A DNA stretch of 64,000 nt from a virus: positions 25,346 through 89,345 of the IMG/VR virus record IMGVR_UViG_3300032360_000001. One strand, written 5' to 3'. Position 1 is the first letter of the stretch, and every line of letters begins with the position of its first letter. Shown here piece by piece: positions 1-18,736 of this stretch. Position numbers and translations under genes: made by a program. The notes beneath the pieces are model-generated. The model searched no databases and was not told the origin of the DNA. It saw only the letters and a list, made by a program, of their open reading frames with translations.

Positions 1-235
1 CGGCGCGCCAACTAAATCCCCTCCTCGTCGGCGCTTGAACCCACCACGCGCCATTTCTCACCTCAGCTGGATATCTGGAACCGCCAACCGATATTCCGTA
101 CCCAGTAGAAATGCCGTGCCTTGTTCTTGATGCTTGATTATTGTATCTATTTCTCATTGCGTCCCCAACGGCAAACACAAGATCTGGGTGCTGTGGTCCG
201 ACTTCTGAAAATATTACCCTAGCTACGTCTTTATC
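1..235 (-). other. Start of an SleB/CwlJ (Hydrolase_2)-like cell wall hydrolase domain
   Basis: DVARVIFSEVGPQHPDLVFAVGDAMRNR resembles the xARxIxxE...AVxxVxxNR catalytic-Glu motif. Truncated by the window edge. Confidence 0.55.
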
Positions 236-3200
236 TACAGCTGACGGGTGTACTCCCCACGCTGCAAAGTCTGGGGTTTCTTCTCTTTGGAAATATCTTC
301 CTCGATTCCTCATCGCGTTGCGATGCGCTGCTGTCGGCGGGCCTATTCTGGCTACTCCACCACGATCAATATTACCCCCCACTAGAGTGCTTGCTTCTGG
401 CCCCCGCGTATATCTATATCCACCGGGAGAAACGCCGTGTGCTCCACGTGTTGCTCTCACGCGTGGAGCAGCCATGTGGCCGTGAATTCCGGCGCGATAT
501 CTTTCCGTAGCTAACGCTAATCGATTGGGGCCGGCAGCAGTAGCATTGTAGGTGTCTCGCCAAAAGTCACGGAGTCTATTATTCCATGCTTGGTGTTTCG
601 GTAGCAATGTCTGGTTACGGCCAGTAGCAGGAATTTCAAGTGCTGATTGTCTTCTAAATTGATTCGGAACAGAGCCCCCACCTCTGGGATTCCAAACAAA
701 ACCGCCTGCGCCATATTCTACGGGCTGCATTGTGCCATATATAGTTGACATCTTATTAAACTGCTCCCACCACCCTTGCCTAAAGCCCGGGAACGGTTTC
801 CCATCAAGCATACCCGGTCTTTTGTCTGCTTCCGGATTGAACAAATGTTCCCCTCCCGGTATAAGAACAACGTCATTTGGCTTAAGGAATTTACTAATAT
901 CAGGTTTCCCCCCGGCTCTCGTCTTTAACGCTTTCATTAATTCCGGATTGGCCGCCGCCAGTGCCGCAGAAATAGTAACTCCATTTGCGCCCATGCTGAT
1001 TGCCTTGGCGGTAGTCATTTCTTCTCGGTATTGCTGACCTATAGAGGTAAGACCTTCTCCCACCTTTACCACGTGACCTAGTCCCTTTCCGGGAATTATT
1101 TCGTATCTTGACGGAAAACCTTCATTTTCGTCGAAAAATTTGTTTTTAGGATCCAATTCCCATTTAGCCTCTGGATCGAAGCCCCCTGTATGCGGCAAGC
1201 CAGTATATGGATGCACCTCCACTTCAGCGCGGTTCTTCGATTTAAAATGTTTTTTGGTCAAAAACCCGCTGGGTGCCCTACCTTTCCACCCGGCTTTGGA
1301 CATGCCAGAGTAGCCCACCACCATACCTAATGCCTCTCTAGTCTTCTTGTCGCCCTCGATTCTGCTTGGTACTGGAACTCTGTGTGGCCCTTTGGGCTTA
1401 GGATTTATTGGCGACCTCCGTGCTCGTTCTTCCGTCAGTGTTGATCGACGTGTCGGGGTCGGTATACCTTTTTTCTTTCGGAATAATGTTAATGCCTCAG
1501 TAGTAGCGGCTCCAGCGTAGCCGTCAATCTTGAGAGGCTTAATCTGACCGGCTTTAGGATTTGGCGACATGAGACCCATGCTGGTTAAATGTTTATTAAG
1601 AGCTCTTTGTTGATCTTTCCTTTCGCTCTCGCCGGTGAAGAACGCGTTAATGCCACCCCCTTGCTCACCAGCGGCCCCCGGAAAATTTGTCATATCCTGA
1701 CCCCATAATCCCGTATAGCCTCCGCTCTTTATGCTAAACCATTCGTTTAATACTCCAAAAGCTTCTGGTTCAATCCACCCGGCAGCCATCATGTCATTCG
1801 CTACGCCGGGTTGCATACCGTTTTCCCATTCCGAAAAACCGGCTGGGTGCATCAGCTGACTCATTCTTTTTCCCGGTTTTAATTTAATCTTTTCGGCGTG
1901 ACGAATCATCTTCATGTAAGCTGACTCAAATGTATCGTTCTTTGTAAACCCAAATCTTTCTATATTATTTGGATCTTTTATCCAATTTAATATGTGGGAG
2001 TTATTAGCCAACTTCTTTATATAATTCTTGTCTAATTTTGGTACTTTCGCCCTGAACGTGTCTCTAGCCGTTACTACGCCACCCGCACCGAATTGTGGTA
2101 CGTCCCGATCCGGTCCACGACGTAGGTTTTCTAATTCCTCCATCAGATCTAGATTTAGAGGAAGCGCATTACCCTTGTTCTTACGGGGGTCGGGCCCAAC
2201 CCCTGCCCCCCATCCGCGTTTATTGAGGGCCCAAGGTGCTGGGTGAACGCCTTCGGGCCATGGGTCACCACCCAACGGCATGCCAAATGGACCAAATCCC
2301 GCATCCCTCATCCCATCGATCTCGTTCTCACGATCAAGCATGGCCAGATGGTCAGCTAATTGTTGTTGGCGTACTGGATCATCTTTCCTTGCTCCCCCCC
2401 ACTCAGCAGCGGTTGGCCCAAAGGCGTTGTTACCTGAGGAGCCGCCTACACGGCTGAAGCCGCGACGACGCGGGTCCACGCGGTCCCAAAACGGCAGTTT
2501 ATCGTTGAATTTGCGCGCCGGTGAGTCGCTCCATGGATAAGCAGTACCAACGATACCACCATCTCCAAATCTTGGAACCCCCTCCCCAAGACCGGGCATC
2601 GTTGAATTCCGGTCCCTCAGGTCCGGCCTAGGAAGACCCGTGGCGGGATCAATCTCAAACGGCCATGGTATCTGTGGTGGCATTGGCGTGCTTGGGCCTT
2701 GTTGCCGGTTTCGGCGCGAAGGTATGCGATGCATACCCTTTGGGAGTGGCGCAAAGGGGTCATTCCACCATCTGCCCTGACCGGGATCAGGTTCCAAACC
2801 CATTGCACTTGTAGGTGAGTCGGGGCTTCCAACAGGCAGCGCATTTGGCGCTTGAATAAATTTATTGTACCACGCGTTTCCCTTCCCCTGCATAAGACGG
2901 TCCTTCAAAAGTCTTTTATGAAGAGCGTAGTTTTCACTCCATCTATGCTGCGATCCAATCCCTATTTTATCCAACTCCGAAATGGATGCCGAGATCTTTG
3001 GATCCATTAGCAATCCCGAAGTGCCCATTTCTGTAAATATTCTTTTGTTATAATCTCCTATATGGGGTATAAGTTCGGGCATGGATTCATCCAGTAACTC
3101 TTTCTCACTAAGAATATGGCGTGGGTTCTGCGTTTGCCTTTTCATGAGGAACTTGTATATTCTGCTTGCTTGCGAATTGCCCTGATGAAAAGCCCCCATG

Positions 3201-6200
3201 TTATCGGCCTGCTCAAACTCACCGATGAGGCCCTTCTCCTTCATAAACGAGTGGAACCACAATCTCTCGCTCATCATGCCGGGGGTGGCCCTATCTTTGG
3301 TCCTGTTCGAAGTCGAAGTGTGCCGAGTTTGAGTACCTATCCTCTGCCCAAACATAGTTCTAGGTATCTCCATACCCGGCGGCGCAAACATCGCAACCCC
3401 CCTGTTGCTAGAGGAGGCAGCGCTCCTCATTTTGTTTTCGGTCCGGAATTCCAGATTGATCCTAGCCATGCGTTTTTTCTCGGCTTCTAATTCGGCCCTC
3501 TTCGCCAGAGCCTCCTTAGACAAGTTATACCATTCGTCACCTCTGGGTATTTCAGTGGATAGATCACCCCTCCCAGACTTTATGAGCGCTTCTCTTAAAC
3601 CTTCTTCTGTCATGGGTCCCCGCTTGTGGAGGGGTTGACCAAAGAAACCCTTACTTGGAATTTGTCCCGTAATTTGAAGCATTTGTCTTTGCTGGATCTT
3701 CTTCTCCCAAGCATTTTGATATTGCGTAACGGGACCTCCGTCTTGATAAACCTGTGGGTTAGCCCATCCGGATTTATTTTTTCTCCACCACTGATTTAGA
3801 TGAGCAAAGGCTAAAGGGTTTCTCTCTTGAAAGATTTGTAGCTCTTCTCTGGCGGCTATCTCTCTCTCGTTAAGACGAGCCGGAAATCCCGCTATGGGCA
3901 AGCCGTTAACGCCAATTCGTTCCGCGAATGTCAACAATGTGTGCTCTTTCTCATGATCGTAACCGCCCTCGGCAATGTTTCGCCTCATATTGCGCATCTT
4001 TTGCGAGGCAAGGTCCTTGGGGGTACCCTTGTGACGAAATGGATTACCCGGAATTCCAATTTCCCGTCTGAATAATTCTTGCATCTCCATTTGGGATTGC
4101 ACCTCATGAAACGCTGGCGGAGCTTTGTCAAAAGCAAATTGTCCGTGCTCACCGCCGGGATTGCCCGGCGCACCGGGCAAAACTTTCACTCCCCTTAATG
4201 GGTTCCGGCCCAAGTTTAAATTGCCGCCAAGCTGCTGGCCGCCGCCCCACCCCGGCATAAGTGGTTGCTGCTGCGCCCAAGTATTTGGGTGCCGCCAAGG
4301 ATTTTGAGGCACCGGACCACCTTGTTGGAACATCCTTCCTTCATTTATCTCGCGTAAATGACCCAGCACTCCGGGCTTTCTGACTTCGCTTTTTCTGACT
4401 ATGAATTCTCCGCCCTCTGCTTCGAGCTTAATGCCTCCCCTCGAGTGAGAAGGACCATGAAGCTCTCCACCTGACTGTTGTTGCGGTAAGCTTGGCCTCC
4501 CATAGTTTCCAAAGCCACCGCTCATCAAGTTCCCCATAAATCTACCTATCGTAGCGTTATAGAACGCTTGGTTTATCATCTTTAAAAAACCTCGAGCCCA
4601 CGCTTTCGCCGTCTCGGTGGCGCTTTCGCCCTCTACTGCAAAAGCTGCCCAACCGTCTGCGAAAGACGAAATCATTCCTTCTCTTATCTCAATCATGTCG
4701 TCGAGGACCCTTTCCTTCCATCCTCTTGACATTGCCTCACCCTTCTCAAACGTGTCCGCTCCAAACGCTTCCCAGACACCTATTTTTCCCGTTCTTAGTT
4801 GCTGACGGGTTATATCCTGTTCTCTTTGGTATGTATCTGCAGGTGTTCCTATGCCCGCTGCTTCTTCTAGTCTGGCTTGTTTTGCTGCTAGCCTTAATTG
4901 AACCTCTGTCAGTTTTTTTGTTGAGTTTAATAATTCTTTGAATTTTTTGGGGTCATCCATTATGGACAAACTCATTGTTGTATTCGCTATCTGCGTGTCG
5001 AGTGCCTCCATCCTCTTCACGTGCTCTGCGGTTACAAATCTTTTTTGTATTTCTATAGCTGCCTGAGTTACCGATCCCCAGTTATCGATAATTACCTTTT
5101 GAGCATTCAGCGCATCTGTGTGTGATTGTTTTGCTTTTCTTAATTCATTTTCAGCATCTTTTCCTGCGTTTATAATGTTTATGTAGTCAGCGTATGTTGC
5201 GTTATGCGCGTCGAGTTGATTTGTTTCATTTTTTCTTGCTAACGCTGACGCTTCGGTTGCTGCCTCCAGATCATCGTTGACCTTCTTAAGCTCTTCTTTA
5301 GTATCGTCGCTCTGCTCCTTCCTTAGTATTACAGCTTTCTCGTTAAGCAACCTAACCACATTATCCTCCGCGGTCTTCTTCTCATTAGCCGTTACCCCCA
5401 ACGCCGCATCACTTTTCTCAAAATCTTTGAATTTCGCTGTCCGCATCATGTGGGCCTTTAAAACATTTGCTTCCGCCACCTTACTCTCTGCGAGAGCTTC
5501 TTTTCTTCCCCCCGCGGCTGCTTCTTTTTCAATGGTCAAAATTTTCTCCATCTCTCTCTTGAGGTTCCGCTGCTGGGTTTCCCCCACTCTTGATGGTGAA
5601 ATCGCGCTAAATGTCTGCGCGGCAAATGCGCCACCCGGCTGTGATGTCCTTGGGCTGCGCATCTGTTGCAATAGGTTTTCCCTCGGTAAGCCCTCTTGTC
5701 TTATAAGCTCCTGATCGAGCTCGAAAGGAGACATGTCTTGCAAATCTTTTGAGGAAATACCAATTGCTTTAGAGAACTTTTCAAGCGCGGCACTGGCTTC
5801 GAGCAAAGCGTCTCTTTCTGCTTGTAAAGAGTCAACAAGCCCCTTAGACTGCTCGTTTGCTGCCTGATTTAGAGCTATTTGGTCCGCGGCTGCCTTTGCT
5901 CTTGGGTCAGTAATCTCGCTGGGAAGTAGCGCCGCGCCACCACGCGCCTCTATGGTTTTTTGGAGCATGGCCGATTGGTCTGTTCTTTCTTTTATAGCCC
6001 TCTGTTCTAAAGCTGTTCTTAATACCACCGCATTATGCCGCGCTCTTATGTTTCTGTCCCCAATTTTCGACTCTGCCACTAGCAGCCGCTTTTGCACTTC
6101 GGTTAGCTTCGATTCAATCAGCGTTCTCTGAGCGTATAAAGCCTTTAATTTGTCTTGTGCTTTGCCAGCCTCAATCGTTCTGTTTTTTATTTTTTCTTCT

Positions 6201-9200: not shown

Positions 9201-12200
9201 GCGACTGTCATTTTGCCTACGTCCTCAGCATTTCCGCCAGTTCGGACCCTCTCCATGAATTTTGCCATATTTATGTCAAAACTACTATCCTTCACTTCCT
9301 GTTTCGACACAGCCCAAACGTCCATCTTCTCCGTAATGTTTTCCCACGTCATAGACTCTCCCGGCAAAAGGCTCCCAGCCGCCGCGTCAATGTGCTTTAC
9401 AAGCCAAGTATTTGCCTTGTGCAAACTCCATAGAATTCCACCTTTATCAAAGATTTCCTCATGTTGTGGAGGGACCATCGAGAATTTAGTGCCCTTGCTC
9501 AAGTTGGCCATCATATCCTCGGCACCGGCTGTTTTACCCTCTAAAGAGGCGAAGGCCTTTTCTTGGTTTATTCTAGTATGCTGCAGGCTTTGTTCTCCCC
9601 TAAATACCTCTACCGCCTGCATGAACCCTGTGTTCGCCTTGGACATGATTTCGCCCATTTTTGACACGGCCCCAGTCATCGCAGTGTCTATCGCGGCTTT
9701 ATAAACTTGATCATTAGTTCTTCGCTGGTTTGCCCCGAATTCCTCTGCTGCCATTGCCGCGCTGCCAAGTTTTTCATTTGAAACTATAAGATCGTAATTA
9801 CTGCCAATAAGTAAAGCCGTTACGTCAACATTTGCACCCAGACTCTCCACCAACATGTTTCTGTTTTTGAACTCGGCCTCTAGAAGTTTAGCTTTATATG
9901 CTCGTTCTTCTGACGCAATTTTTGACAAATTAGCTGAGTCCATAACCTCCGCCATCATTCCGCCTTGAGCAGAATTCATGCTTTCTATTATACTTTTCCC
10001 TATGTCTGGATTAAAGTTGCTATTAATGACTCTACTTACGTTTTCCGGGCTCATTCCAAGGGCCTCTAAAGCGTCGGGGGCTTCTGCCCTAAAGGTTCTT
10101 TCCAGAAGGCTCTCTTTCATGGCCTTACCTATGCCATTTGCGAAATCAAATCCCATTTTTTCCAGATCTCTTAGCCCCTGCATCTGCATCATTGCCGCTT
10201 TTGACCTCTCGCCCCTAGTTGGAAGCCCCGCCACAGTCGTTAACTTCTTCAAGGCGTCAATAATGCCTCCTCCGCCAAAACCTCCCCCCGCTGTCATGGA
10301 TTCCTGCAGGGTTCTTCTTCTTTGAAACGCCCTGTTCGATTCTGCAATTTGATTTTGAATTATCAGAAGCCTATTTGATTGGGCAAGATTTAAATTGTTT
10401 TCTTTTATTTCGTATTCTGCTTTGGAAAGTGCATCTTCTAGTTTTCTACCCTGCTCTCTTCCGACCCCCCCTTCCTTGTCATTGATTATTCCTCTGTATA
10501 TATCCGCGGCAAGATCAGCTGGGCCGACTATCATTTGCCGCGCCAAGACTTGAAGTTGCTGCAATCCGCCGGGCAAGCTTCCCCCTGCGCTGCTTTTTTC
10601 CATGGTCATCTTAAGGATTGCGTCGTGAAATCTTTTTTGCAACAGGGTATTTTTTAAGGTGTTAGTTTCTATATTCTTGAGTATATTGCCGGCAACTCCA
10701 AATCTTTCCCTGCGTTCCCTACCAATCGTTTCGTCCCCCGTTACGGCACTTGATAATTCCTTGCTCACTTTCTGACTGTGGTCAAAGAGAGATTTTGATA
10801 CATTCATTAAATGTTCAAATGAATTTGATATTTGTGATAACCTATAGTTTAGATCAGCCGTAGCTAGTGCCATTCTTTCTATCGATTCTACAGATTTTGA
10901 AGTTTCTGCTTCGAGCTCTTCATACCCTCGGGCTTGAGCCATTATCTGCGGTATAAGACCTTGATTTTCTTCTCCAAGCGCTTCTATCATGTCTGCGGCT
11001 TCTTTAGCTCCAACGCCCATTTCTTCAAGCTTAGCCGTTAGATCAGCGCCGGATTTACCCATGAGTTCCCAACTCTTAATTCCTTTTAATTCGAATGCAG
11101 AAGATAAGGTTTTCGCCAAGTCCTTCATTACTCCTCTTTGCGCTGCGCCGCCTTCCCCCGCTTTCGCCGCTAATACGCCCATCGAACCTTTCTTTTCCTG
11201 CATGGAAATAGTTTCCTGCACTTTAGCCATGGCTTCTCGCATTTTGCTTTCATCACCAGCAGCACCAATTAGCTCTCTCCTTAGTCCCGCATCCTCGATT
11301 TGCATGAGTTGTTCTCTCATTTGTCTGCGCATCATCCCCGTTTCGGCAGGACCAGCGCCCCTATTAAACATGCCGGTTAATCTCCCCTGCAGTTTAATAT
11401 ATGCCTCCGCGCCGAGTAAGGCTTTCTTTCTCGCCTCCGTCTCTTTTTGAATAGCTTTCGCGTAGTCTTCCGCTGTTTTCTTGCTGGCTTTTTGATGGTC
11501 CATGAACGCCAGCCCGGCACCAATAGCTAAGCCCGCTGCCGCGCCCCAAGGACCGCCAATCATTGCGCCAGTTCCGGCCATCCCTGCCGCGGTGCCAACT
11601 CCTCTAACTTTTGCTTTCTCTGCTCTTTCTTCTGGGGTTTCGCCTTTGCCTCCAACAAATTGTTCGGCCACTCCAGCCATCATTTGAATACCTATTCCCA
11701 GCCCAAAGCCTTTTTGTTTGATCCACTTACTCGCGGCACCTTTCGTGTCCGGTTTTAGTGCTGCGGCCTTTTCTGCCGCTTTTGCTTCTGCGTGTTTTGC
11801 GGCGGCTACTTTCCTTGAGGTCGTTGCCATTTTCTTGTCCATCGCCCAAATTTTTGCTTGAGCGGCGGCCTTTTTTTCGTTTGCTGCGTTTGCTCGATCA
11901 GCAGCGCGGGCTTCAGCCTCTCTCGCCTTTTGAAGAAGTAAGGTTTTTTTGGTTAGGTCCTTGGCTGCTTTATCGCCGGAATGTTCGCCGACGGATCCCC
12001 TTGGGGTTCTTCCTGAAGTATCTACGGATTGTGAAATTATTTTACCAGCTTGGGCGTGGCCTTGTTGTCTTAGCTTTTCGATTTTTGCATTGTATGCTGG
12101 GGTGTGTGGAAGACCAGTAGAAGGATTTATTCCGGGAACGCCACCAACGGTGCCTCGCTCTGCGCGTAACCCAGTCATTCCTAGTCCCGCTGGTCCGGAA

Positions 12201-15200
12201 TGCGCCATTCCAGCGCCTCGCGGCCCCGGGGTACCGTGCATTATTGCCCTGTTCACTTCTCTTCGAACTATTCTATCTGCTGCTTTTTGCTGCGCCGCTT
12301 CAGCTTGCTTTACGCCTCCCGTTCTCTCCCCCCCCGGAGTGGTTCTCGTTCCGAATTTGGCCTCCATTCGGCTCTTGGTCGCCTTCTGAGCGTCGCGCCC
12401 ATGCTCCTTGACCTCCGTTTGTAATCTAGTTTTTTCTTTTTGTTGGGCTTTTCGTGCTCTTTCTTGTTTTTTAGCGGCTGCTTTCGCTTTTTTCTTTATA
12501 TCTTTTTGTTTTTCGTGATCCGCCTTTTGATCGGCCAGCATTTTTGTTTCTTGAGCGCTGTCTCCGCCCATTTGCATCATCATTCCTGCCATCATCATTC
12601 CTGATGTCATGGCCATGTAATCAACGCTATCTGCAGCATAGTTGGGTATGTAACCCCCACTTGCCCTCGAGCCCGCTTTAGCTGGGTCTGGGTGAGATCT
12701 AACAGCTTTAATTAGATCCGCCTTTGTCCGTTCATCTCTCTTATTTCCTACCGCCAAACCTTTGTATTCTGGAGTATCTATGGAAGCTGCATAAAGTTGA
12801 TTTTCGGGTAACCCGGTGGCTTTCTTTTCCCTTCTAAACGCATCCGCTAGTGCATCGCCTTTGCTGAAACTAGGAATGAGCCCTTGGCCAGCTGGATTAA
12901 CCTGCCCCCAATTACTGCCATAATTTACTATTCGGGGCCGTATATTCATATCTTTGCTTGCACCTCTTAGTGCCGCGTAATATGCGTTTGCCCGTGAGTC
13001 TTCATAGAACTTTGCGTTTTGTAAATGTGGGCGTTCAAAAATTTCATAGGCCTTCTTCTGGTGAGTTTTCTCTATCCCTTTGGGGTATTTTCTGCTTCCA
13101 GTAGCTATTACTTCCCTGTATGGAATTTTTTGGGCTTTTAACCAAGTCTGAATATATGGAATTGAATCTTCCCCTCTTGCGGTTAAAACCGTCATTGGCT
13201 CTTTATTTTTTGAGGCTGCCTTCGCTAATTTAGTTGGTACCATATGACCGACAGACCAACCATGCCACGTATCCCCTTCTCGCATTTTTCTCATACCTGT
13301 TGGGGTGGTAACCATCCCTTTTGGAGGTACTCCCAACGTCCCATCAAAATCAAAAATGTTTCCCTTTCCGCGTCCACGGGCTGCGGCTGCCATCGATCCT
13401 CCCCGCATTAAATTAGGAATGAAACCTTGGGCCGCACCAAAATGCGTCATTAGTTTATCATAATTCGATGCCGATGGACTCCCTTGAAGGATCTTCATTA
13501 TATCCTTACCAAAAATATCTTTTATTTGTGTAGCGCCTTTGGCCCCCTCAAGCGTAACTTCACTTTGGGAAACTCTTTGCATTCTTTGGAAGTCTGCCGT
13601 TTTTGCGGTATCTATATAGTTATCTAATTTTGTTAGATCGCCCTGCAACTTCTGCGGACTGTGGAATGTGCCGGCTTTATCTTTGTAGCCGCCGCGGGCA
13701 ATATTCTTTTCTATTCCTGTCCGTAAAAAATGCAATAGTCCGCCCTCTTTACCCGAGTCAGAAGAGAATAACGATTTGTACGACAGGCTTCCTCTGGCGT
13801 CTCTGCCGGACATCCCCGCATGAAAACTTGGTTTGAATTCAGCAGGTCCAATTATTTTCCCCCCTTTTATAGCTATTGCATCTAGAATTGTTTCTCCTTG
13901 CCCCCCCTTTACATTGCTAAACGGCAGAAGTTGATGGCCGCTACCACGACCAACAAGGGCTTTTTCTATTAAACTAGAATGAGTTAATTCCGCTTTTGCA
14001 AAAAATGAGCCTTTAGCAGCGGGGTTGTTACCTAGCACCTCCATTGCCCTTTCTCTTGCCCCCAAGAATGACCGTGCTGTCCCGCTTGGGTGGTATACTA
14101 TATCTTGTGCTATACGCGACGCGTTACCCGCACCCCCAACTGAATCGACGAAGCCCTTGTACGCCGTCTTACCAACCGCCGGAGATAATAGATCATTGTA
14201 AAATCGTTTTGCAACATCGCTTGGCATTGTAGCTCTCGCAACTGCTACTTCTCCTATTTCTCCTAACGCTATTTTTCCCTTTGCGGCTGACACACCATGA
14301 CCCGATATTGCATGATCATAAGCGGTCCTTAATACGTTTTTTTGCCCCTTAGGAACCTTGGGTCCGGATTTATGGAATCTCCCTATTCCGAAACTTTCTA
14401 AAGAAGCGGCTGCTCCTTTTCCGGGCATGGCTACTGTACCCAACCCCAGTTTGCCTCGACCAAATAAAGAAAGCATCGCTGGGTTGGCGAAATTTGGAAC
14501 TGAATAAGGATCGACACCAGTTTTGGCCATTGATTTTTCTCTATGTTGCCTACCGGCCTTCGAGTGCTGTGGTGGATTAATGAATGGCTGAGCAAAGCCG
14601 GGTACATGTTTAACCTGTTCTTTTGAGTTGTAGGTCATTGTTCCAAGCCCGGGCATTTTCATTTGTTTTATGGCTCCTGCTTTGTACCCGCCTTCTGCTG
14701 CGCTTATTATTTCACTTACAGCGCTTTCTCTCTTGTTAAAATTCGGTATGTGTCCCCGCGCCGAGTGTTTGGGCGGTCTACCCCTCATATACGCCGGTGC
14801 CTGTACTTGTCCTGCACCACTTACGGTTACCCCGCCCTTTACCATCATGCCAGCCATTCTTGCGGCAACCTTCTCCATGTTCTGCATCACAAGGGTCTCT
14901 TGCTCGAGCATAGCGATTATTTCTCTTTCTACCTGCACTCTTGCTTGCGATGACTGCGCTGCTCTTGCTATAAGTTGTGGCTGAGCTTCCAATATTTTGG
15001 CTATTCCTTCTTGCAAGCTTTTTTGTTGTACAGCAGCGGTGTTCAAACCCATGAATTGGGCTCCTGATTCCTTGACGAATTTTGCTAAATTCATTCCAAG
15101 TTTTCCAAGGAATCCAGTTAATAAAAGAAGTCCCGGGCCTTGCAAGAAATTTCCAATTCCGGACAACATTCCTTGCGCAATTTTTCCCCCCACATCTTTC

Positions 15201-16426
15201 GTGTCCTTTTCGTTTATGTCGCCTAAAACTTTTTGCATAACTCCAACCACCCTCTCTGTGACTGGTCTTAACGTTAGGTCTCCTACTTTCTTTGCTGCCT
15301 GCGTGGCTAGAGCCATCGTCTTTTTTACTTGAGCGTCGAGAGTTTTGTTGAGCAGTTCATTTCTTAATATCGCTTCGTTTGTCGATCCCGTCGATACCTT
15401 AACGGCTTTATCGTAAATCGAATATTCTTGTCCAAGGTCAGAGAGTATCGCTCTTAAGTTATTCATTTGGAATACGCCAGCAGTAACCTCAGCAGTATGA
15501 GCTTGTTGAGCCTTAGATAGCGTAGGAAACTTTTTGGCCAAATTGCCAAGAACATTCATTGCGGGCATCATTTGCCCCTCCAAGTCTCTCACCTTCACCC
15601 CTAATTCTTCCAAGAGATTAAGAGTGTCTTTTCTTTGGATTCTTGTAAATATACTTTTTAACGCGTTACCAATAACGGGACCACCACGGGCCGTTGTTTG
15701 CTGAACGGAAGCTGTGATTGCAAGAAGTTGATCAAAGGATACGCCAACGTCCTGAGCGGTACTTCCCACACGCCTCATGGATTGAGCTAAATCATCTGTG
15801 CTTACGGCAAATGCCGCATCCACATTGGCAAGCTTATTAATTACCTGAGTAGAACTTAATGCCTCCCTATTGAACGTATTTAATGCTGCCGTTAAGGAAG
15901 AAACTGATGCCGCCGCATCCATACCGGAAAGTCTCGTAAGAATGAGGGCGTCGCTTGTTCTCTGAAGCGTCTCTTCGGTTGACAAACCTTGCCTAGCTAA
16001 TTCTGTCGCTGCTTCAGCTACAGTATCGAAACTTTGTGCCGTTTTTTGCGCTATTGTGAAAAGGCTGTTTCCGAACTTTGCGAGGCCTCGATCTGTTTGT
16101 CCTAAAATTACATTGACATCCTGAAGTCTTTTCTCGACCTCAATAGTACTTTTAAGTAAAAATTCAAATGCCCTTTGGACTTGAAAAATCGCCCCAGCAG
16201 AAGCTCCAAACGCTAAAACACGCGCATTTGATGCTTCGAGTGATCTTGTGAATTCATTTGTGGCACCAGTGATTTTCCCAAGGGGCCTAGTAAATTTCCC
16301 AGAGTCAACGCTAACGTTAACCCCTCGCCTTTCTACTTGGGTAATAGCGCTGTTTATTTGCCTTAAAGTGGCTTGTAGTGACGCGCTATCTAACCTTGTT
16401 CCTAGTGTGATAAAACTATCCGCCAT
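1..16426 (-). CDS. Giant tape measure protein, at least 5475 aa, 3' end outside the window
   Basis: ATG at 16426 (MADSFITLGTRLD...). N-terminal TP901-type core (AEAATELARQGLS...LANVDAAFAVS...TARGGPVIGNALKSIFTRI). Gly/Ala-rich hydrophobic segment near 11500-11720. The segments I translated by hand have no stop, and its absence from the ORF track fits a frame open to the window edge. Lies downstream of the tail tube and chaperone genes. Confidence 0.93.
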   Translation of the reverse strand, partial: MADSFITLGTRLDSASLQATLRQINSAITQVERRGVNVSVDSGKFTRPLGKITGATNEFTRSLEASNARVLAFGASAGAIFQVQRAFEFLLKSTIEVEKRLQDVNVILGQTDRGLAKFGNSLFTIAQKTAQSFDTVAEAATELARQGLSTEETLQRTSDALILTRLSGMDAAASVSSLTAALNTFNREALSSTQVINKLANVDAAFAVSTDDLAQSMRRVGSTAQDVGVSFDQLLAITASVQQTTARGGPVIGNALKSIFTRIQRKDTLNLLEELGVKVRDLEGQMMPAMNVLGNLAKKFPTLSKAQQAHTAEVTAGVFQMNNLRAILSDLGQEYSIYDKAVKVSTGSTNEAILRNELLNKTLDAQVKKTMALATQAAKKVGDLTLRPVTERVVGVMQKVLGDINEKDTKDVGGKIAQGMLSGIGNFLQGPGLLLLTGFLGKLGMNLAKFVKESGAQFMGLNTAAVQQKSLQEGIAKILEAQPQLIARAAQSSQARVQVEREIIAMLEQETLVMQNMEKVAARMAGMMVKGGVTVSGAGQVQAPAYMRGRPPKHSARGHIPNFNKRESAVSEIISAAEGGYKAGAIKQMKMPGLGTMTYNSKEQVKHVPGFAQPFINPPQHSKAGRQHREKSMAKTGVDPYSVPNFANPAMLSLFGRGKLGLGTVAMPGKGAAASLESFGIGRFHKSGPKVPKGQKNVLRTAYDHAISGHGVSAAKGKIALGEIGEVAVARATMPSDVAKRFYNDLLSPAVGKTAYKGFVDSVGGAGNASRIAQDIVYHPSGTARSFLGARERAMEVLGNNPAAKGSFFAKAELTHSSLIEKALVGRGSGHQLLPFSNVKGGQGETILDAIAIKGGKIIGPAEFKPSFHAGMSGRDARGSLSYKSLFSSDSGKEGGLLHFLRTGIEKNIARGGYKDKAGTFHSPQKLQGDLTKLDNYIDTAKTADFQRMQRVSQSEVTLEGAKGATQIKDIFGKDIMKILQGSPSASNYDKLMTHFGAAQGFIPNLMRGGSMAAAARGRGKGNIFDFDGTLGVPPKGMVTTPTGMRKMREGDTWHGWSVGHMVPTKLAKAASKNKEPMTVLTARGEDSIPYIQTWLKAQKIPYREVIATGSRKYPKGIEKTHQKKAYEIFERPHLQNAKFYEDSRANAYYAALRGASKDMNIRPRIVNYGSNWGQVNPAGQGLIPSFSKGDALADAFRREKKATGLPENQLYAASIDTPEYKGLAVGNKRDERTKADLIKAVRSHPDPAKAGSRASGGYIPNYAADSVDYMAMTSGMMMAGMMMQMGGDSAQETKMLADQKADHEKQKDIKKKAKAAAKKQERARKAQQKEKTRLQTEVKEHGRDAQKATKSRMEAKFGTRTTPGGERTGGVKQAEAAQQKAADRIVRREVNRAIMHGTPGPRGAGMAHSGPAGLGMTGLRAERGTVGGVPGINPSTGLPHTPAYNAKIEKLRQQGHAQAGKIISQSVDTSGRTPRGSVGEHSGDKAAKDLTKKTLLLQKAREAEARAADRANAANEKKAAAQAKIWAMDKKMATTSRKVAAAKHAEAKAAEKAAALKPDTKGAASKWIKQKGFGLGIGIQMMAGVAEQFVGGKGETPEERAEKAKVRGVGTAAGMAGTGAMIGGPWGAAAGLAIGAGLAFMDHQKASKKTAEDYAKAIQKETEARKKALLGAEAYIKLQGRLTGMFNRGAGPAETGMMRRQMREQLMQIEDAGLRRELIGAAGDESKMREAMAKVQETISMQEKKGSMGVLAAKAGEGGAAQRGVMKDLAKTLSSAFELKGIKSWELMGKSGADLTAKLEEMGVGAKEAADMIEALGEENQGLIPQIMAQARGYEELEAETSKSVESIERMALATADLNYRLSQISNSFEHLMNVSKSLFDHSQKVSKELSSAVTGDETIGRERRERFGVAGNILKNIETNTLKNTLLQKRFHDAILKMTMEKSSAGGSLPGGLQQLQVLARQMIVGPADLAADIYRGIINDKEGGVGREQGRKLEDALSKAEYEIKENNLNLAQSNRLLIIQNQIAESNRAFQRRRTLQESMTAGGGFGGGGIIDALKKLTTVAGLPTRGERSKAAMMQMQGLRDLEKMGFDFANGIGKAMKESLLERTFRAEAPDALEALGMSPENVSRVINSNFNPDIGKSIIESMNSAQGGMMAEVMDSANLSKIASEERAYKAKLLEAEFKNRNMLVESLGANVDVTALLIGSNYDLIVSNEKLGSAAMAAEEFGANQRRTNDQVYKAAIDTAMTGAVSKMGEIMSKANTGFMQAVEVFRGEQSLQHTRINQEKAFASLEGKTAGAEDMMANLSKGTKFSMVPPQHEEIFDKGGILWSLHKANTWLVKHIDAAAGSLLPGESMTWENITEKMDVWAVSKQEVKDSSFDINMAKFMERVRTGGNAEDVGKMTVAFEAYKSTLTDANVPQDSQMKISLVRAQEALLRSFARISEVTEEQGLIERTELPTGETRVRGTLPLDLNDWEKTQTWMGTSASPSEAIKILTKDLKDMVFEGDSGNWQPNMISALSKLTDVVALLPGKKGFEAYELQSDPKKLLTALLAIQTAVIGVHPSQPGQIYTRGTRQVLSPGIGGGETWDQTQQRGGRTDASYYNEIPLIRVQQPLEQGEYEGMMVGVSDMMEDYRSAGKLLFTNFQKTFKEGRTVDVSEAKLIKAALDKFEGQEARIRKVLEGVALRTGDEEGFFEREGDIKPLLEQFDTITDAFQASLKAIIDPNKGIVVDKKLAEQIAALLSKQIKELKPFRSSTIDLGGGVPDRPKGGGTVDAVKEWTNSFSKAAENTMKEWIFSVNTMDVGNNISDALNSFADYADNFSNGMEILNATIDELADTELAISADPLETPLLAIQQSIDALSKLNSSENEDTKNALNNKEDIVINVLTNILEAILSDETVSKSQREEIKNALHLLPEQYKRAMDEIEGRSSSRLLRDKLFDLRKQTTSAPIPPPLIPGSMLAGQVRRGTEQTTQPLTTMARQTFGKYGRSFLRGNKGYQGPRSGLPSVKELLGIDPDKAFKNIPDPSEIDKMMKDVEKASPEVSDPGGRASVIYLTKLKTGSDKIHDIARQAAERLMGDNAEMIDEIHKLAPFLGDLPFQELEKGLEAANKDMSAVKRVQTAATQKASAMARTLGRHTMEMANVFINQNLLAAFRGPQQVNVAKRVGGQWMDKLKDAMPDIAGKVTGMGPEGLSPGTFEGGLFGGKLNQDALWRRAAVRKEGGVFTPDRTRDYEHSMLGPGSIWKISGMQNDPATFGDKRDMAYRFLTNLSQGKAHQRMITAPGGNVGGPPALGFTAAREHTILGGDTANAIAQTYGVSLDNLKGANPQIANINRINAGDKMNIPAQYSIEHTLGQKLTANQQKKIAAQLDKQFKEGVAYHNEIHKANVAQKKITDNAKEIAAIEEKIKNRTIEAGKAQDKLKALYAQRTLIESKLTEVQKRLLVAESKIGDRNIRARHNAVVLRTALEQRAIKERTDQSAMLQKTIEARGGAALLPSEITDPRAKAAADQIALNQAANEQSKGLVDSLQAERDALLEASAALEKFSKAIGISSKDLQDMSPFELDQELIRQEGLPRENLLQQMRSPRTSQPGGAFAAQTFSAISPSRVGETQQRNLKREMEKILTIEKEAAAGGRKEALAESKVAEANVLKAHMMRTAKFKDFEKSDAALGVTANEKKTAEDNVVRLLNEKAVILRKEQSDDTKEELKKVNDDLEAATEASALARKNETNQLDAHNATYADYINIINAGKDAENELRKAKQSHTDALNAQKVIIDNWGSVTQAAIEIQKRFVTAEHVKRMEALDTQIANTTMSLSIMDDPKKFKELLNSTKKLTEVQLRLAAKQARLEEAAGIGTPADTYQREQDITRQQLRTGKIGVWEAFGADTFEKGEAMSRGWKERVLDDMIEIREGMISSFADGWAAFAVEGESATETAKAWARGFLKMINQAFYNATIGRFMGNLMSGGFGNYGRPSLPQQQSGGELHGPSHSRGGIKLEAEGGEFIVRKSEVRKPGVLGHLREINEGRMFQQGGPVPQNPWRHPNTWAQQQPLMPGWGGGQQLGGNLNLGRNPLRGVKVLPGAPGNPGGEHGQFAFDKAPPAFHEVQSQMEMQELFRREIGIPGNPFRHKGTPKDLASQKMRNMRRNIAEGGYDHEKEHTLLTFAERIGVNGLPIAGFPARLNEREIAAREELQIFQERNPLAFAHLNQWWRKNKSGWANPQVYQDGGPVTQYQNAWEKKIQQRQMLQITGQIPSKGFFGQPLHKRGPMTEEGLREALIKSGRGDLSTEIPRGDEWYNLSKEALAKRAELEAEKKRMARINLEFRTENKMRSAASSSNRGVAMFAPPGMEIPRTMFGQRIGTQTRHTSTSNRTKDRATPGMMSERLWFHSFMKEKGLIGEFEQADNMGAFHQGNSQASRIYKFLMKRQTQNPRHILSEKELLDESMPELIPHIGDYNKRIFTEMGTSGLLMDPKISASISELDKIGIGSQHRWSENYALHKRLLKDRLMQGKGNAWYNKFIQAPNALPVGSPDSPTSAMGLEPDPGQGRWWNDPFAPLPKGMHRIPSRRNRQQGPSTPMPPQIPWPFEIDPATGLPRPDLRDRNSTMPGLGEGVPRFGDGGIVGTAYPWSDSPARKFNDKLPFWDRVDPRRRGFSRVGGSSGNNAFGPTAAEWGGARKDDPVRQQQLADHLAMLDRENEIDGMRDAGFGPFGMPLGGDPWPEGVHPAPWALNKRGWGAGVGPDPRKNKGNALPLNLDLMEELENLRRGPDRDVPQFGAGGVVTARDTFRAKVPKLDKNYIKKLANNSHILNWIKDPNNIERFGFTKNDTFESAYMKMIRHAEKIKLKPGKRMSQLMHPAGFSEWENGMQPGVANDMMAAGWIEPEAFGVLNEWFSIKSGGYTGLWGQDMTNFPGAAGEQGGGINAFFTGESERKDQQRALNKHLTSMGLMSPNPKAGQIKPLKIDGYAGAATTEALTLFRKKKGIPTPTRRSTLTEERARRSPINPKPKGPHRVPVPSRIEGDKKTREALGMVVGYSGMSKAGWKGRAPSGFLTKKHFKSKNRAEVEVHPYTGLPHTGGFDPEAKWELDPKNKFFDENEGFPSRYEIIPGKGLGHVVKVGEGLTSIGQQYREEMTTAKAISMGANGVTISAALAAANPELMKALKTRAGGKPDISKFLKPNDVVLIPGGEHLFNPEADKRPGMLDGKPFPGFRQGWWEQFNKMSTIYGTMQPVEYGAGGFVWNPRGGGSVPNQFRRQSALEIPATGRNQTLLPKHQAWNNRLRDFWRDTYNATAAGPNRLALATERYRAGIHGHMAAPRVRATRGAHGVSPGGYRYTRGPEASTLVGGNIDRGGVARIGPPTAAHRNAMRNRGRYFQREETPDFAAWGVHPSAVDKDVARVIFSEVGPQHPDLVFAVGDAMRNRYNNQASRTRHGISTGYGISVGGSRYPAEVRNGAWWVQAPTRRGFSWRA
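855..1078 (-). other. Second, interrupted LysM-like domain inside the tape measure ORF
   Basis: HVVKVGEGLTSIGQQY...LAAANPEL...LKPNDVVLIP: both LysM ends are present, with insertions between them. Confidence 0.55.
1460..1620 (-). other. Peptidoglycan-binding (PG_binding_1-like) domain inside the tape measure ORF
   Basis: QQRALNKHL...LKIDGYAGAATTEALTLFRKKKGIP resembles the DGxFGxxTxxAxxxFQxxxGL motif. Confidence 0.7.
6377..6514 (-). other. LysM domain inside the tape measure ORF
   Basis: EHTILGGDTANAIAQTYGVSLDNLKGANPQIANINRINAGDKMNIP matches the LysM pattern. Confidence 0.88.
12950..13365 (-). other. HAD-superfamily phosphatase-like domain inside the tape measure ORF
   Basis: In-frame translation gives IFDFDGTL (motif I), VLTARG (motif II), HQKK (motif III) and FYED (motif IV) in the correct order. 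Confidence 0.8.
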
Positions 16427-16447
16427 GGCCTTTTCTGTTTTTATTAA

Positions 16448-16453
16448 TTACAC
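16448..16453 (-). promoter_or_regulatory. Putative late promoter motif GTGTAA (representative copy, upstream of the tape measure gene)
   Basis: The same hexamer lies shortly upstream of starts at 18764, 22680, 22956, 39165, 43495, 44753, 44883, 45884, 47956, 51322 and 58259. Confidence 0.75.
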
Positions 16454-16460
16454 TAAAAAA

Positions 16461-17486
16461 TCAGTGCCCATGTAACTTTATAAGTTCCTCCATATTAAGT
16501 GATCCTCCCTTTTTCATAGCCTCTTGAGCTAAGTCGACGAACTTCTCTCCTTCATCTATGGCTCCAAGTTTATTCATTTCGTCCTTGGATGCACCCACTA
16601 TTGAGCTTCCGCCCACGTTACCGGAGTCCTTAACCTTATCAAACGCAGCTTGAGACGCCTTGCTGGACTCATACCAGTCTATAATGGCATCTGGGTCATC
16701 CATTATGTCGTGTGGGGGCTTGTTTTTTGAATCTTGAAGTATCGATTTGAAATATTTTGCATGACCAAAAAGTTCAGCCTGATAAAAGGTCAAGTTTACC
16801 GCCGCCTTACCGAAGAATGTCATCGGGTTATCATCACACAAATAAAAGAAATTAAGAAAAAAGCCCGATAAAGCTATCTTTTTTAGATTTCTTGGAAAAA
16901 ATGGCTCCATTTTATTATTGTAAAGAGTAACTAAATAAAAAATATCCTGAGTGCTTAACTCGTCGAATTCTTCCTCAGAGAGCAAATGCTCAGAACATTC
17001 GGGGTTTTTAAATAATGATTGAAATATATAGTGTTCGTTTGATTTTTTTGAGCTATAAGAGTTACAAGTCATCCCTATAAACTCTGACCTTCTGTTCTCT
17101 TTTATCTGTATTTCGCCTTCTGTTTCTCTTATTTGGTTAGTTAGTTGATTCTTGTCTTTCTCTAAAAAAAGTTTGGATTTGTTTACTTTTAGTTGTTTAA
17201 CCCAGCTTCTTAGTCCATCCAACTCATTGTCTTGTTGTTTCGTCCAATCCCCCTCTTTATGGAGGTACTCAAGCTTGTCTTCTTCTGTTGGTAGTCCTTC
17301 TTTTTTAGCCTCTTCGTAGTACCTATTTTTTATTTGATCCATGCCGGCAGCGTCAATAGTACCGAGGTGTTTGATGTGTGTGCTTTTATATTTTTTGTCT
17401 TCAGTCTTAGAGTAGCCGTTTATTATATCAGCATAAAGAAGCCTCAGCGAGGCGCTATTCATTCTTTCTTTCTCTTTGTCGTTCAT
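16461..17486 (-). CDS. Putative tail assembly chaperone (downstream member)
   Basis: 341-aa helical ORF immediately upstream of the tape measure gene. Function inferred from position only. Confidence 0.5.
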   Translation of the reverse strand: MNDKEKERMNSASLRLLYADIINGYSKTEDKKYKSTHIKHLGTIDAAGMDQIKNRYYEEAKKEGLPTEEDKLEYLHKEGDWTKQQDNELDGLRSWVKQLKVNKSKLFLEKDKNQLTNQIRETEGEIQIKENRRSEFIGMTCNSYSSKKSNEHYIFQSLFKNPECSEHLLSEEEFDELSTQDIFYLVTLYNNKMEPFFPRNLKKIALSGFFLNFFYLCDDNPMTFFGKAAVNLTFYQAELFGHAKYFKSILQDSKNKPPHDIMDDPDAIIDWYESSKASQAAFDKVKDSGNVGGSSIVGASKDEMNKLGAIDEGEKFVDLAQEAMKKGGSLNMEELIKLHGH

Positions 17487-17492
17487 ATGTAT

Positions 17493-17518
17493 AAAAAAAC
17501 CCCCACCTTAGGCGGGGG
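17493..17518 (-). terminator. Intrinsic terminator between the two chaperone-like genes
   Basis: Minus strand CCCCCGCC-TAA-GGTGGGGG followed by T7. Confidence 0.75.
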
Positions 17519-17540
17519 AGTTCAGGTTAGTTTTCCATTA

Positions 17541-18494: not shown

Positions 18495-18736
18495 AACTTT
18501 AGTTCAATATCAAATTTTTCTAAATTTTCCTCAATTTCCCTTATGGTGTCATTCCCGTAGTCAAGAATTCTTTTTCTTATTCTTTGAAACTCTTCCTCTG
18601 GAATATCATAGCCAGCCTTTTCTAAATCTTCTAAAATAAAAAGATAATTTTTATAAAGATTGACTACCTTACGGCGTAATTGAAATACTAAGAAGTCCTT
18701 GGACTTTTCGTCCCCTTTGTTCATGTCTCCATGCAT
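18491..18736 (-). CDS. Hypothetical protein
   Basis: 81 aa; ATGA overlap with the next gene; GTGTAA motif upstream. Confidence 0.7.
   Translation of the reverse strand: MHGDMNKGDEKSKDFLVFQLRRKVVNLYKNYLFILEDLEKAGYDIPEEEFQRIRKRILDYGNDTIREIEENLEKFDIELKL

Follow-up and report, generated by a model that had tools for sequence, protein, structure and literature searches.

The window analysed here is a 64,000-nt stretch (bases 25346–89345) of an 89,345-bp IMG/VR virus record, and its left end is occupied by a minus-strand open reading frame of 5475 aa (window 2..16426) that starts with ATG and is open at the window edge. On the contig, the full frame with its stop codon covers bases 22485–41771 and encodes 6,429 aa, of which residues 5476–6429 (contig 22485–25346) lie to the left of the window. 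An earlier sequence-only reading had claimed an unbroken minus-strand frame of at least 5475 aa with a TP901-type core, and both parts hold. The translation of window 2–16426 contains no in-frame stop, and a PF10145 (PhageMin_Tail/TP901-type) core is present at aa 126–312 (15491..16051, minus strand; 115.2 bits against a Pfam gathering cut-off of 33.2, E 4.6e-33), within an N-terminal 1,400-aa region that is matched by 19 PHROG tape-measure families. The same frame is retained by three independent relatives, P0003 (6,003 aa; JGI), P0004 (5,946 aa; ENA) and G001 (6,037 aa; IMG/VR), and an assembly artefact can be rejected for this reason. The protein is a genuine 6,429-aa tape measure protein (TMP) of the TP901/PF10145 family from an uncultured large phage.

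Terminase and collagen-like fibre genes belong to the same module as the TMP gene, and a 1,686-aa Phage-tail_3/FNIII-A_GpJ protein is encoded nearby on the opposite strand, so that the phage carries a lambda-J-type tail tip gene. Tail assembly chaperones are usually encoded directly upstream of the TMP, and this position is taken by two genes of 341 and 317 aa (16464..17486 and 17544..18494, minus strand), which have homologues in 71 and 68 of 80 related loci, respectively, and accompany the TMP in 60–71 of them. A ClpP-like gene is present further along the window, at 45093–45851. Neither upstream gene has a family match or a recognisable protease signature, and their profiles found no match in the PDB.

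The TMP is built on a conserved chassis, in the order core, bookend 1, bookend 2, hydrophobic segment, a ruler of ∼2,700 aa containing a LysM domain, three GEYV units, and a conserved C-terminal domain and tail. All coordinates below are on the minus strand. The hydrophobic segment (aa 1264–1295; 12542..12637) is rich in Met and Gly and follows the last copy of the first fence motif described below; in relatives, the equivalent position is taken by a hydrophobic stretch rich in Gly, Ala and Met. The long ruler part (aa 1296–3984; 4475..12541) is rich in A, E, K, Q, L, R and M, a composition from which we infer that it is helical. Embedded in it is the LysM domain (aa 3307–3350; 6377..6508; 30.2 bits against a Pfam cut-off of 20.9, E 4.2e-7). 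LysM is a binding domain. Among Pfam families, no peptidase domain (E ≤ 0.1) was found in the 6,429 aa and no peptidoglycan hydrolase was recognised in the TMP; a Pfam search of aa 5408–6429 returned no families.

Two short peptide motifs, which we call fences, punctuate this protein, and all ten copies listed in the sequence-only reading, from both families, are found where it had placed them. The first (‘PNF’) has the form G-x-[IV]-P-N-[FY], and PNF-like matches start at aa 558, 642, 1001, 1182 and 1258 (nt 14755, 14503, 13426, 12883 and 12655). The corresponding fences are GHIPNF (fence 1; aa 558–563, 14738..14755), YSVPNF (fence 2; aa 641–646, 14489..14506), GFIPNL (fence 3; aa 1001–1006, 13409..13426), GLIPSF (fence 4; aa 1182–1187, 12866..12883), in which Ser replaces Asn, and GYIPNY (fence 5; aa 1258–1263, 12638..12655). 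Four strict matches occur in the TMP, compared with 0.08 expected from 100 residue shuffles, and all 26 giant homologues contain 3–20 copies per protein where ∼0.1 would be expected. Across 279 instances, the motif has P in 100%, N in 94%, G in 92% and F or Y in 91%, with Ser (4%) and Gly (2%) also present at the Asn position. The family is large, with at least 468 IMG/VR candidate stretches confirmed as relatives by tblastn, and each of the 80 examined from this set has two or more copies (median 5).

Fences 1 and 2 flank bookend 1, a conserved module of ∼80 aa (aa 564–640; 14507..14737), and fences 4 and 5 flank bookend 2, a conserved module of ∼70 aa (aa 1188–1257; 12656..12865). Bookend 1 is represented by 19 copies in 18 of the 26 giants (mean column identity 51% in a 45-sequence alignment) and bookend 2 by 26 copies in 22 of the 26, from which a 58-sequence alignment was made. 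The two are similar to each other (hhalign probability 96.7%). Against the PDB, the bookend 2 profile found no match and that of bookend 1 only two at chance level (E 0.43–0.44). A search of a genome collection with bookend 1 matched only MAG contigs of mixed taxa, and for this reason no host is named.

Conservation of the fences is at the level of the peptide and does not extend to the DNA, and the fences are almost confined to TMPs. Synonymous codons vary between copies (ATA/GTT/ATT, CCG/CCA/CCT/CCC, AAT/AAC and TTT/TTC, with Gly codons differing as well), so selection acts on the peptide. This bears directly on the proposal that the motifs mark places of recombination or are remnants of mobile DNA cassettes, without any role as peptides. 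Such a proposal would account for insertions and deletions that start and end at the motifs (see below), but because the copies use different synonymous codons they share no DNA word on which recombination could act, and PNF is conserved across hundreds of phages at 40–50% protein identity. We reject a DNA-level repeat or recombination site on the codon differences and regard this explanation as very improbable. The motif is also absent outside the TMP on its own contig, and the non-TMP reading frames at the loci of PNF relatives contain only two loose matches in 330,012 residues; a tag carried by separate proteins is rejected on this count.

Array 1 lies between the bookends (aa 647–1187) and is composed of two modules, one an orphan and the other a HAD-like phosphatase, both of which end in A-x-G-[FLHY]-[IV]-P-N-[FY]. 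The orphan (module 2; aa 647–1000, 13427..14488) is a basic 354-aa segment with no Pfam or PDB match, and its sole match among 1.84 billion representatives is the P0004 cluster. A phmmer search of the PDB with the wider segment aa 541–1290 gave no match at E ≤ 1, and the region from bookend 1 to bookend 2 of a typical relative has no match in cultured phages.

The HAD-like cassette (aa 1007–1181; 12884..13408) was recognised from motifs by inspection and from weak HMM matches. The motifs seen by eye are DFDGT (aa 1026), LTARG (aa 1081), KK (aa 1124–1125) and FYEDS (aa 1140). DFDGT corresponds to motif I (DxDxT, containing the nucleophile Asp) and is invariant in all five sequences of the cassette; LTARG, KK and FYED, assigned by eye to HAD motifs II–IV, are likewise invariant in these five, which are 51–91% identical. 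Profile comparisons give weaker signals. The Pfam HAD family matches two of the five homologues at E 0.0054 and leaves the present copy unmatched, phrog_415 matches at E 0.0025, and hhalign aligns motif I only, with the phosphatase motif at aa 155–172 of T4 Pnk (18 columns, probability 45%). The best HAD-like match in a PDB profile search has E 0.92, an NCBIfam search with the alignment returned nothing relevant, and no curated HAD model was matched significantly. The suggestion that enzyme domains lie between the linkers is partly supported: one fenced module, the HAD-like one, resembles an enzyme, at the level of motifs and of HMM scores below curated thresholds. The remaining modules are orphans, and the LysM domain is not between fences.

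The second motif (fence B) has the form [FY]xxGGxV. Copies start at aa 4033, 4227, 4620, 4779 and 5238 (nt 4330, 3748, 2569, 2092 and 715), and two further copies (aa 5737 and 6273) lie outside the window. The protein contains eight matches, compared with 0.63 expected from 100 residue shuffles; the one at aa 2050, within a Gly run, is taken for a chance occurrence. GEYV unit 1 (aa 3985–4039; 4310..4474) ends in the fence FQQGGPV (nt 4310–4330) and is followed by array 2 (aa 4040–5689), whose modules each end in [FY]-x-x-G-G-x-V, the flanking peptide of the GEYV units. These modules are cassettes C1 (aa 4040–4226, 3749..4309; closing fence YQDGGPV, nt 3728–3748), C2 (aa 4234–4619, 2570..3727; FGDGGIV, nt 2549–2569), C3 (aa 4627–4778, 2093..2548; FGAGGVV, nt 2072–2092), C4 (aa 4786–5237, 716..2071; YGAGGFV, nt 695–715) and C5 (aa 5245–5689), which starts within 2..694 and runs past the window. 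Outside the window are GEYV unit 2 (aa 5690–5743), the conserved domain (aa ∼5791–5917), GEYV unit 3 (aa 6216–6280) and the C-terminal tail.

The sequence-only reading was correct about the copies of this second linker, which turns out not to be peculiar to the present protein: it flanks a conserved unit of ∼55 aa that occurs in many TMPs, including those of cultured phages. In the PDB, the GEYV-unit profile matches two copies in Douge gp16 (8zdo_S; E 6.8e-21), the JBD30 TMP (8rk3_A; E 1e-5) and lambda gpH aa 743–792 (8iyk_H; E 0.022), and it matches TMP genes in 234 cultured-phage records. These three proteins and the TMP described here thus have the unit in common, together with its [FY]xxGGxV flanks.

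Relatives match aa 3840–4040, 5690–5917 and 6196–6429 and nothing between 4047 and 5676, and array 2 itself is accordingly a lineage-specific insertion between two GEYV units. Its five cassettes have no family match, and phmmer found no PDB match at E ≤ 1 for aa 3951–6429. As stand-alone queries, C4 and C5 found nothing at E ≤ 0.01 among near-length proteins in a set of 5.8 billion, and a tblastn search of cultured phages with C4–C5 gave one marginal match, to the GEYV unit only. Stretches of C4 and C5 that by eye resemble SleB-type hydrolases (C5), PG_binding_1 (C4) and a second LysM had no search support and are not claimed. Pfam searches of the JoeDirt TMP and of the C-terminal regions of four relatives gave one marginal match to Tape_meas_lam_C and no match to a hydrolase in the stretches that separate the units.

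Comparison of homologues indicates that the fences bound swappable modules, as had been proposed. All three insertions or deletions of more than 100 aa relative to two close homologues start and end at motif pairs: the HAD-like cassette and C1 are absent from P0004, and C2 is absent from P0003. C2 is also missing from G001, a fourth relative. Ten shorter gap runs of 15–29 aa (nine distinct places) do not fall at motif pairs. The HAD-like cassette recurs in the TMPs of P0028 and P0029, where it is again fenced by PNF, with similarity extending from one PNF to the next and with unrelated neighbours. Cassettes are thus gained and lost as a whole domain together with its C-terminal fence. Single-protein scans of IMG/VR matched only the two closest relatives.

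The content of the arrays varies greatly across the family. The 239 inter-PNF modules of 26 proteins fall into 123 clusters, the two bookends being conserved and the others mostly singletons, and 190 modules from 80 loci form 74 families. Few of 132 module representatives from relatives reach Pfam at E ≤ 0.001, and >90% of modules match no known family. The 15 Pfam families that are matched are hit by one or two members each, and several of these matches are coiled-coil or TMP-like. Modules of the SNase, GNAT, ATPase and nucleotidyltransferase-associated kinds are present in relatives, and VanY and PolyA-polymerase-type domains occur there as well.

These data can be read in purely structural terms, with modules that are not cargo but fill space, lengthen the ruler or bind the envelope in an extremely long tail, and with fences that act as register clamps holding parallel TMP chains together. 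The scarcity of known families fits such a reading, as do the LysM domain inside the ruler and the place of fence B in a chassis element common to ordinary TMPs. Several giants, moreover, repeat bookend-like PNF pairs far into the protein, where helical stretches of 770–1,376 aa separate them. The HAD-like cassette nevertheless keeps its DxDxT, T, K and ED residues across five sequences, the enzyme-type domains of relatives have no obvious structural use, and the speed at which modules are exchanged among near-identical phages is a better fit to conflict-related cargo. We consider the structural reading improbable.

The explanation we favour, and hold to be somewhat probable, is that the TMP consists of a conserved chassis carrying two fenced cassette arrays, with the fences as standard joints and the modules as virion-borne cargo. 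The tail would then probably carry ready-made proteins into the host. Each fence would be read by one conserved partner, for which the candidates are the proteins in the upstream chaperone position, the tube lumen, sister TMP chains or a processing enzyme. With a single partner reading the fence, any cassette equipped with a fence could be incorporated into the tail. In lambda, T5 and others, the TMP exits the tail before the DNA does, with its C terminus leading. It would follow that array 2 meets the cell envelope first, and that array 1, with its putative phosphatase, comes last, beside the incoming DNA end. Such a joint, combined with this order of exit, would let the modules act as virion-borne cargo, either tethered or cut off. 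The tube lumen is ∼4 nm wide, and three or six parallel chains bearing folded modules of ∼18 kDa would not fit in it side by side; for this reason the modules may not be folded inside the particle, or may be located elsewhere.

A different role for the fences, as proteolytic sites, would make the TMP a polyprotein that is cut during tail maturation or after ejection, releasing the phosphatase and C1–C5 as free modules. The two accounts depart from each other only in what the fences do. Short, strongly conserved peptides placed exactly at module ends are what such sites would look like, and the near-invariant Asn of PNF invites comparison with Asn-dependent self-cleavage, which occurs at an N–F site in tetraviruses and at an N–PTH site in FlhB/YscU. 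Some copies, however, have Ser or Gly in place of Asn (fence 4 and the minority of instances given above), cuts at every PNF would separate the PF10145 core from the ruler, and neither the TMP nor the two upstream genes show a protease. Cleavage of the TMP is established in lambda and T5, according to PMC12617516, which describes both the site and the catalyst of gpH cleavage as unknown. The size of the C-terminal gpH fragment, ∼14 kDa, places the cut near aa 710–725, just upstream of lambda's own unit and, by this estimate, ∼10–25 residues from the fence-B-like peptide FATGGFT (aa 733–739); gpH also contains YATGGYV at aa 778–784. For the Thermus phage P23-45, by contrast, the authors of PMC10770324 propose that their polymerase operates in association with the TMP pore. 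Taken together, we view the polyprotein reading as possible though unlikely.

There is also a more far-reaching reading. Here the fences would be processing or release signals and the TMP family a true phage polyprotein and plug-in delivery rack, in which any domain that gains a C-terminal PNF fence (cytoplasm-facing) or [FY]xxGGxV fence (envelope-facing) would be packaged in the tail and set free inside the host as the DNA enters, always in the same order; fence B would also be the long-sought determinant of cleavage of lambda gpH into gpH* and gpHC. This reading we find doubtful.

Known systems share parts of the arrangement. Embedded cell-wall functions, or processing, are known for lambda gpH (gpH*, gpHC), T5 pb2 and the TMP of mycobacteriophage TM4, in which the extra functions are C-proximal and processing is near the C terminus. 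Such TMPs have one or two GEYV-type units and lack the 1,650-aa string of five modules found here between units, whereas the present protein has no recognisable muralytic domain of the T5 pb2/TM4 type, only LysM. The 5,002-aa TMP of P23-45, gp96, has a virion RNA polymerase as its N-terminal part (PMC10770324), and it resembles the present TMP in being giant and in having an enzyme near the N terminus; that enzyme is thought to enter with the DNA or to sit at the DNA entry channel. It is a single enzyme fused at the extreme N terminus of gp96, whereas the cargo in our 6,429-aa protein follows the PF10145 core, and the available text of PMC10770324 mentions no repeated delimiter peptide, cassette turnover or second array.

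The sequence-only reading drew a comparison with polyvalent proteins (Iyer et al. 2017; PMC5512222). Proteins of this kind are very large, are carried in the virion or transferred, and string together unrelated effector domains; the domains differ from one relative to another and are presumed to function as invasion begins. Polyvalent proteins have several recognisable effector or enzyme domains and typically an embedded peptidase, an MPTase in about 36%, whereas the TMP has one enzyme-like module and no processing peptidase in its 6,429 aa. No common delimiter peptide is described for them in the available text of PMC5512222, from which the term ‘tape measure’ is absent, and in our case the tail ruler itself takes the part of the carrier. 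A literature search found no published description of a fenced TMP family.

Entry of phage proteins into the cell envelope begins with the TMP. If the favoured explanation is correct, a peptide joint for swapping TMP cargo would provide a general, evolvable means of protein delivery ahead of the genome, with possible roles of the cargo in counter-defence, nucleic-acid end repair and cell-wall passage, and would account for the TMPs of 4,000–10,000 residues in some uncultured phages. Fence B is linked to the unit that adjoins the unmapped cleavage region of lambda gpH, and one part of the idea can accordingly be tested in a phage in common laboratory use. We also observed that the TMP contains no cysteine, a feature that it shares with lambda gpH and the JoeDirt TMP and that is accordingly not a family-specific trait.

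The minus-strand frame at window positions 2–16426 begins with an ATG and is still open at the left window edge after 5,475 residues. Inspection of the sequence had suggested a frame of at least 5475 aa, and its translation, searched for an in-frame stop, contains none. The window covers bases 25346–89345 of a linear IMG/VR record of 89,345 bp (CheckV completeness 57%). In the whole record the frame reaches a stop and encodes a 6,429-aa tape measure protein (TMP; contig 22485–41771). The TP901-type core proposed by the sequence-only reading lies at residues 126–312 (Pfam PF10145, PhageMin_Tail, E = 4.6e-33). The first 1,400 residues match 19 PHROG tape-measure families, and the 25 listed tblastn matches to cultured phages are all annotated TMPs, confined to residues 6–402. 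A LysM domain (Pfam) is located at residues 3307–3350, and the helical parts, judged by composition, amount to ~3,300 residues. The G+C content of the gene is 46–51% (window 1–16000) versus 39–44% in the adjoining genes (window 16001–30000), probably because of its Ala/Gly-rich composition.

The protein is divided by peptides of the G-x-[IV]-P-N-[FY] type (PNF fences), and the five copies noticed by the sequence-only reading are all found where it had placed them. The strict motif occurs four times, compared with 0.08 expected from residue shuffles of the 6,429-aa TMP. A logo of 279 copies contains A/S at position –2 (74%), followed by G (92%), F/L/Y/H, V/I (95%), P (100%), N (94%), F/Y (91%) and A (49%). 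Synonymous codons vary among the five copies in this gene, so the conserved entity is the peptide and not a DNA site. There is no PNF motif outside the TMP frame in this contig, and the non-TMP ORFs of related loci contain two loose matches in 330,012 residues. The fences are thus selected as peptides and are almost confined to TMPs.

When the homologue search was limited to a size range of 3,535–11,251 aa, 26 giants were identified at E ≤ 0.001, including the query's own record. P0003 and P0004 are 78% and 65% identical to the query across 85% and 58% of the searched region, respectively, and the other giants share only the N-terminal ~12%. A further close relative, G001 (6,037 aa), is 76% identical. 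At least 468 relatives were confirmed in IMG/VR by N-terminal alignment in one scan, and the best 80 of these form our set of related loci. The majority of the 80 match up to residue ~647, which is as far as the second PNF motif. PNF motifs number two or more in each of the 80 TMP frames, with a median of 5 and a maximum of 12, and the minimal layout is PNF, ~82 aa, PNF, ~230–310 aa, PNF, ~73 aa, PNF. Splitting the 26 giants at PNF yields 239 modules, which form 123 sequence clusters. Two clusters are recurrent ‘bookends’: the first (~85 aa) has 19 copies in 18 giants and the last (~75 aa) has 26 copies in 22 giants. The two align with an hhalign probability of 96.7%, much of the score being supplied by their shared motifs. 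The remaining clusters are for the most part singletons, and the 190 non-bookend modules of 100–650 aa in the best 80 loci fall into 74 families. Bookend-like PNF pairs, 76–95 aa apart, are repeated at intervals of 770–1,376 aa deep within P0021, P0018, P0016 and other giants, as if marking stations on the ruler.

In a species-genome collection, nothing but MAG contigs, from a mixture of aquatic taxa, matches through bookend 1; in isolate genomes the similarity is limited to the PF10145 core. No cultured phage matches the region spanning bookend 1 to bookend 2. Cysteine is absent from G001 and from 23 of the 26 giants, and only four cysteines occur in 218,003 TMP-frame residues of the best 80 loci. 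Lambda gpH (gene H, 853 aa) and the JoeDirt TMP (gene 16, L126:2106–7034, 1,643 aa) also lack cysteine, so its absence may be common to TMPs in general rather than a mark of this family.

Module gain and loss takes place at the motifs. Three-way alignment with P0003 and P0004 contains 15 gap runs of at least 15 aa, five of which make up three large events. Residues ~1007–1187 (the HAD-like module) and ~4040–4226 are missing from P0004, and residues 4234–4626 from P0003. All three events start and end at motif pairs, as expected for the swappable, linker-bounded modules that had been proposed; the other ten runs (15–29 aa, nine distinct places) do not lie at motifs. The second C-terminal module, C2, is also missing from G001, with its left break at a motif. 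Residues 646–1187 gave four matches among 1.84 billion representatives. The P0004 cluster covers module 2, which precedes the HAD-like module; P0028 (2,489 aa) and P0029 (2,408 aa) contain the HAD-like cassette at 50–52% identity; and the fourth, weakly matched at E = 5.9e-4, is a cysteine-rich protein that contains no PNF motif. Similarity to P0028 and P0029 extends from a few residues past one PNF up to the next, and the adjoining modules differ, indicating that the mobile unit is a domain plus its C-terminal fence. The HAD-like cassette is thereby seen in three distinct TMP settings. The TMP combines a conserved chassis with two sites that accept modules, each exchanged as domain and fence together.

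The second site is delimited by a different peptide, [FY]xxGGxV (fence B). The five copies listed by the sequence-only reading were recovered in place, with two more past the window edge. Eight are seen in the 6,429-aa TMP versus 0.63 expected from residue shuffles, and the copy at residue 2050, within a glycine run, is taken to be chance. Fence B borders both sides of a ~55-aa ‘GEYV unit’ with the consensus GGxV-xGGSGxKDDVPAMLxxGEYV-xxKxAVxKYGxxFLxxLNxG-...-[FY]AxGGxV. A profile built from 73 units matched TMP chains of solved structures: gp16 of mycobacteriophage Douge, in two copies (E = 6.8e-21), the TMP of JBD30 (E = 1e-5) and lambda gpH residues 743–792 (E = 0.022). By tblastn the unit occurs in 234 cultured-phage records, most of the matches listed being annotated as TMPs. 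In the Douge structure, TMP residues 1,658–1,699 alone are resolved (PMC13033339). The present TMP contains three units, at residues ~3985–4039, 5690–5743 and 6216–6280. More distant relatives match residues 3840–4040, 5690–5917 and 6196–6429 and have no match between about 4047 and 5676, indicating that modules C1–C5 are a lineage-specific insertion of 1,650 aa between two GEYV units. Each of C1–C5 closes with the flank peptide of the unit. This array (array 2) mirrors array 1, which the two bookends enclose and whose fences repeat the bookends' flank peptide.

The proposal that enzyme domains lie between the linkers holds in part: there is one enzyme-like module here and there are more in relatives, but the remaining modules are mostly orphans. 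The motifs DFDGT, LTARG, KK and FYED of the HAD-like module are invariant in all five sequences. HMM searches give weak support to a putative HAD assignment: phrog_415 (polynucleotide kinase) matches at E = 0.0025, and Pfam HAD matches two of the five homologues at E = 0.0054 but not the window's own copy. An NCBIfam search returned nothing relevant and a PDB profile search no significant match; hhalign against T4 polynucleotide kinase (Pnk) placed motif I alone, with a probability of 45%, on the phosphatase motif of Pnk. Module 2, which matched the P0004 cluster only, and C1–C5 have no known-family or solved-structure match in Pfam and the PDB. Apart from TMP-like and coiled-coil matches, Pfam searches (E ≤ 0.001) of 132 representative modules of relatives found SNase (two), GNAT and HATPase_c (one each for two models apiece), and a cytidyltransferase-associated region, PcfJ and a CI-type HTH (one each). 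Matches to PHROGs extend the list to endonuclease, nuclease, cytidyltransferase and polynucleotide kinase (two), and precomputed Pfam labels place PF01743 in P0016 and VanY (PF02557) in P0027. These matches argue that enzyme cargo is real in the family. A precedent for a TMP-borne enzyme is the TMP-fused RNA polymerase of P23-45 (PMC10770324).

Each fence would be read by one conserved partner, allowing any module with a fence to be built into the tail. A tail lumen of ~4 nm would be too narrow for three to six parallel chains to carry folded modules abreast, and in the virion the modules are therefore probably unfolded or staggered. Helical TMP rises ~1.5 Å per residue, and the tail would be ~0.5 μm or more if the ~3,300 helical residues alone run at this rise. 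The lambda and Douge papers place the TMP C terminus at the tail tip (PMC12617516, PMC13033339). TMPs exit ahead of the DNA. On these grounds array 2 would be the first to reach the envelope, and array 1 would come in last, beside the DNA end, where its putative phosphatase could usefully act on nucleic-acid ends or nucleotides. The modules may act tethered or after being cut free. Lambda gpH yields a 14-kDa C-terminal fragment, corresponding to a cut near residues 710–725, within GSAIGGAVGGGASASGG. This segment lies directly upstream of FATGGFT (residues 733–739), a GEFV core and YATGGYV (residues 778–784). The coincidence with a fence-B-like peptide is approximate, and processing near fence B is plausible. 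PMC12617516 describes the exact site and catalysis of lambda TMP cleavage as unknown. We found no published account of TMPs with delimiter peptides or arrays of cassettes, and the term ‘tape measure’ is absent from the polyvalent-protein paper (PMC5512222).

The TMP neighbourhood is a virion module that includes the large terminase gene. The window genes given with coordinates here are all on the minus strand. In a 1,750-aa fibre (33018–38270), Pfam Collagen (E = 4e-32) marks six triple-helix stretches. A 252-aa ClpP-family protein (45093–45851; Pfam CLP_protease, E = 1.1e-27), possibly the prohead protease, is a speculative candidate for TMP processing. Homologues of the genes immediately upstream of the TMP occur in 42–71 of the best 80 related loci (of at least 468), and these genes have no match in domain families or the PDB. 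The 436-aa product of 47963–49273 is 21–28% identical to a gene 2–3.5 kb upstream of the TMP in 48–60 of the 80 loci, a place taken in this phage by a 435-aa gene (18849–20156); the two products may be paralogues, perhaps tube proteins. Two phrog_3347 genes (galactose-3-O-sulfotransferase annotation) are situated among the tail and fibre genes (22962–23711, E = 7e-21; 24830–25549, E = 6e-13). A 394-aa tubulin/FtsZ-family protein (46590–47774) is encoded within the virion-gene region; it matches Pfam Tubulin at E = 1.2e-10 and, more weakly, Tubulin_2 and TubZ-like_C. Just outside the window, on the strand opposite to the TMP, is a 1,686-aa Phage-tail_3/FNIII-A_GpJ protein. Also outside the window is another very long open frame (contig 1–8352, minus strand), which encodes at least 2,784 aa and runs off the contig start.
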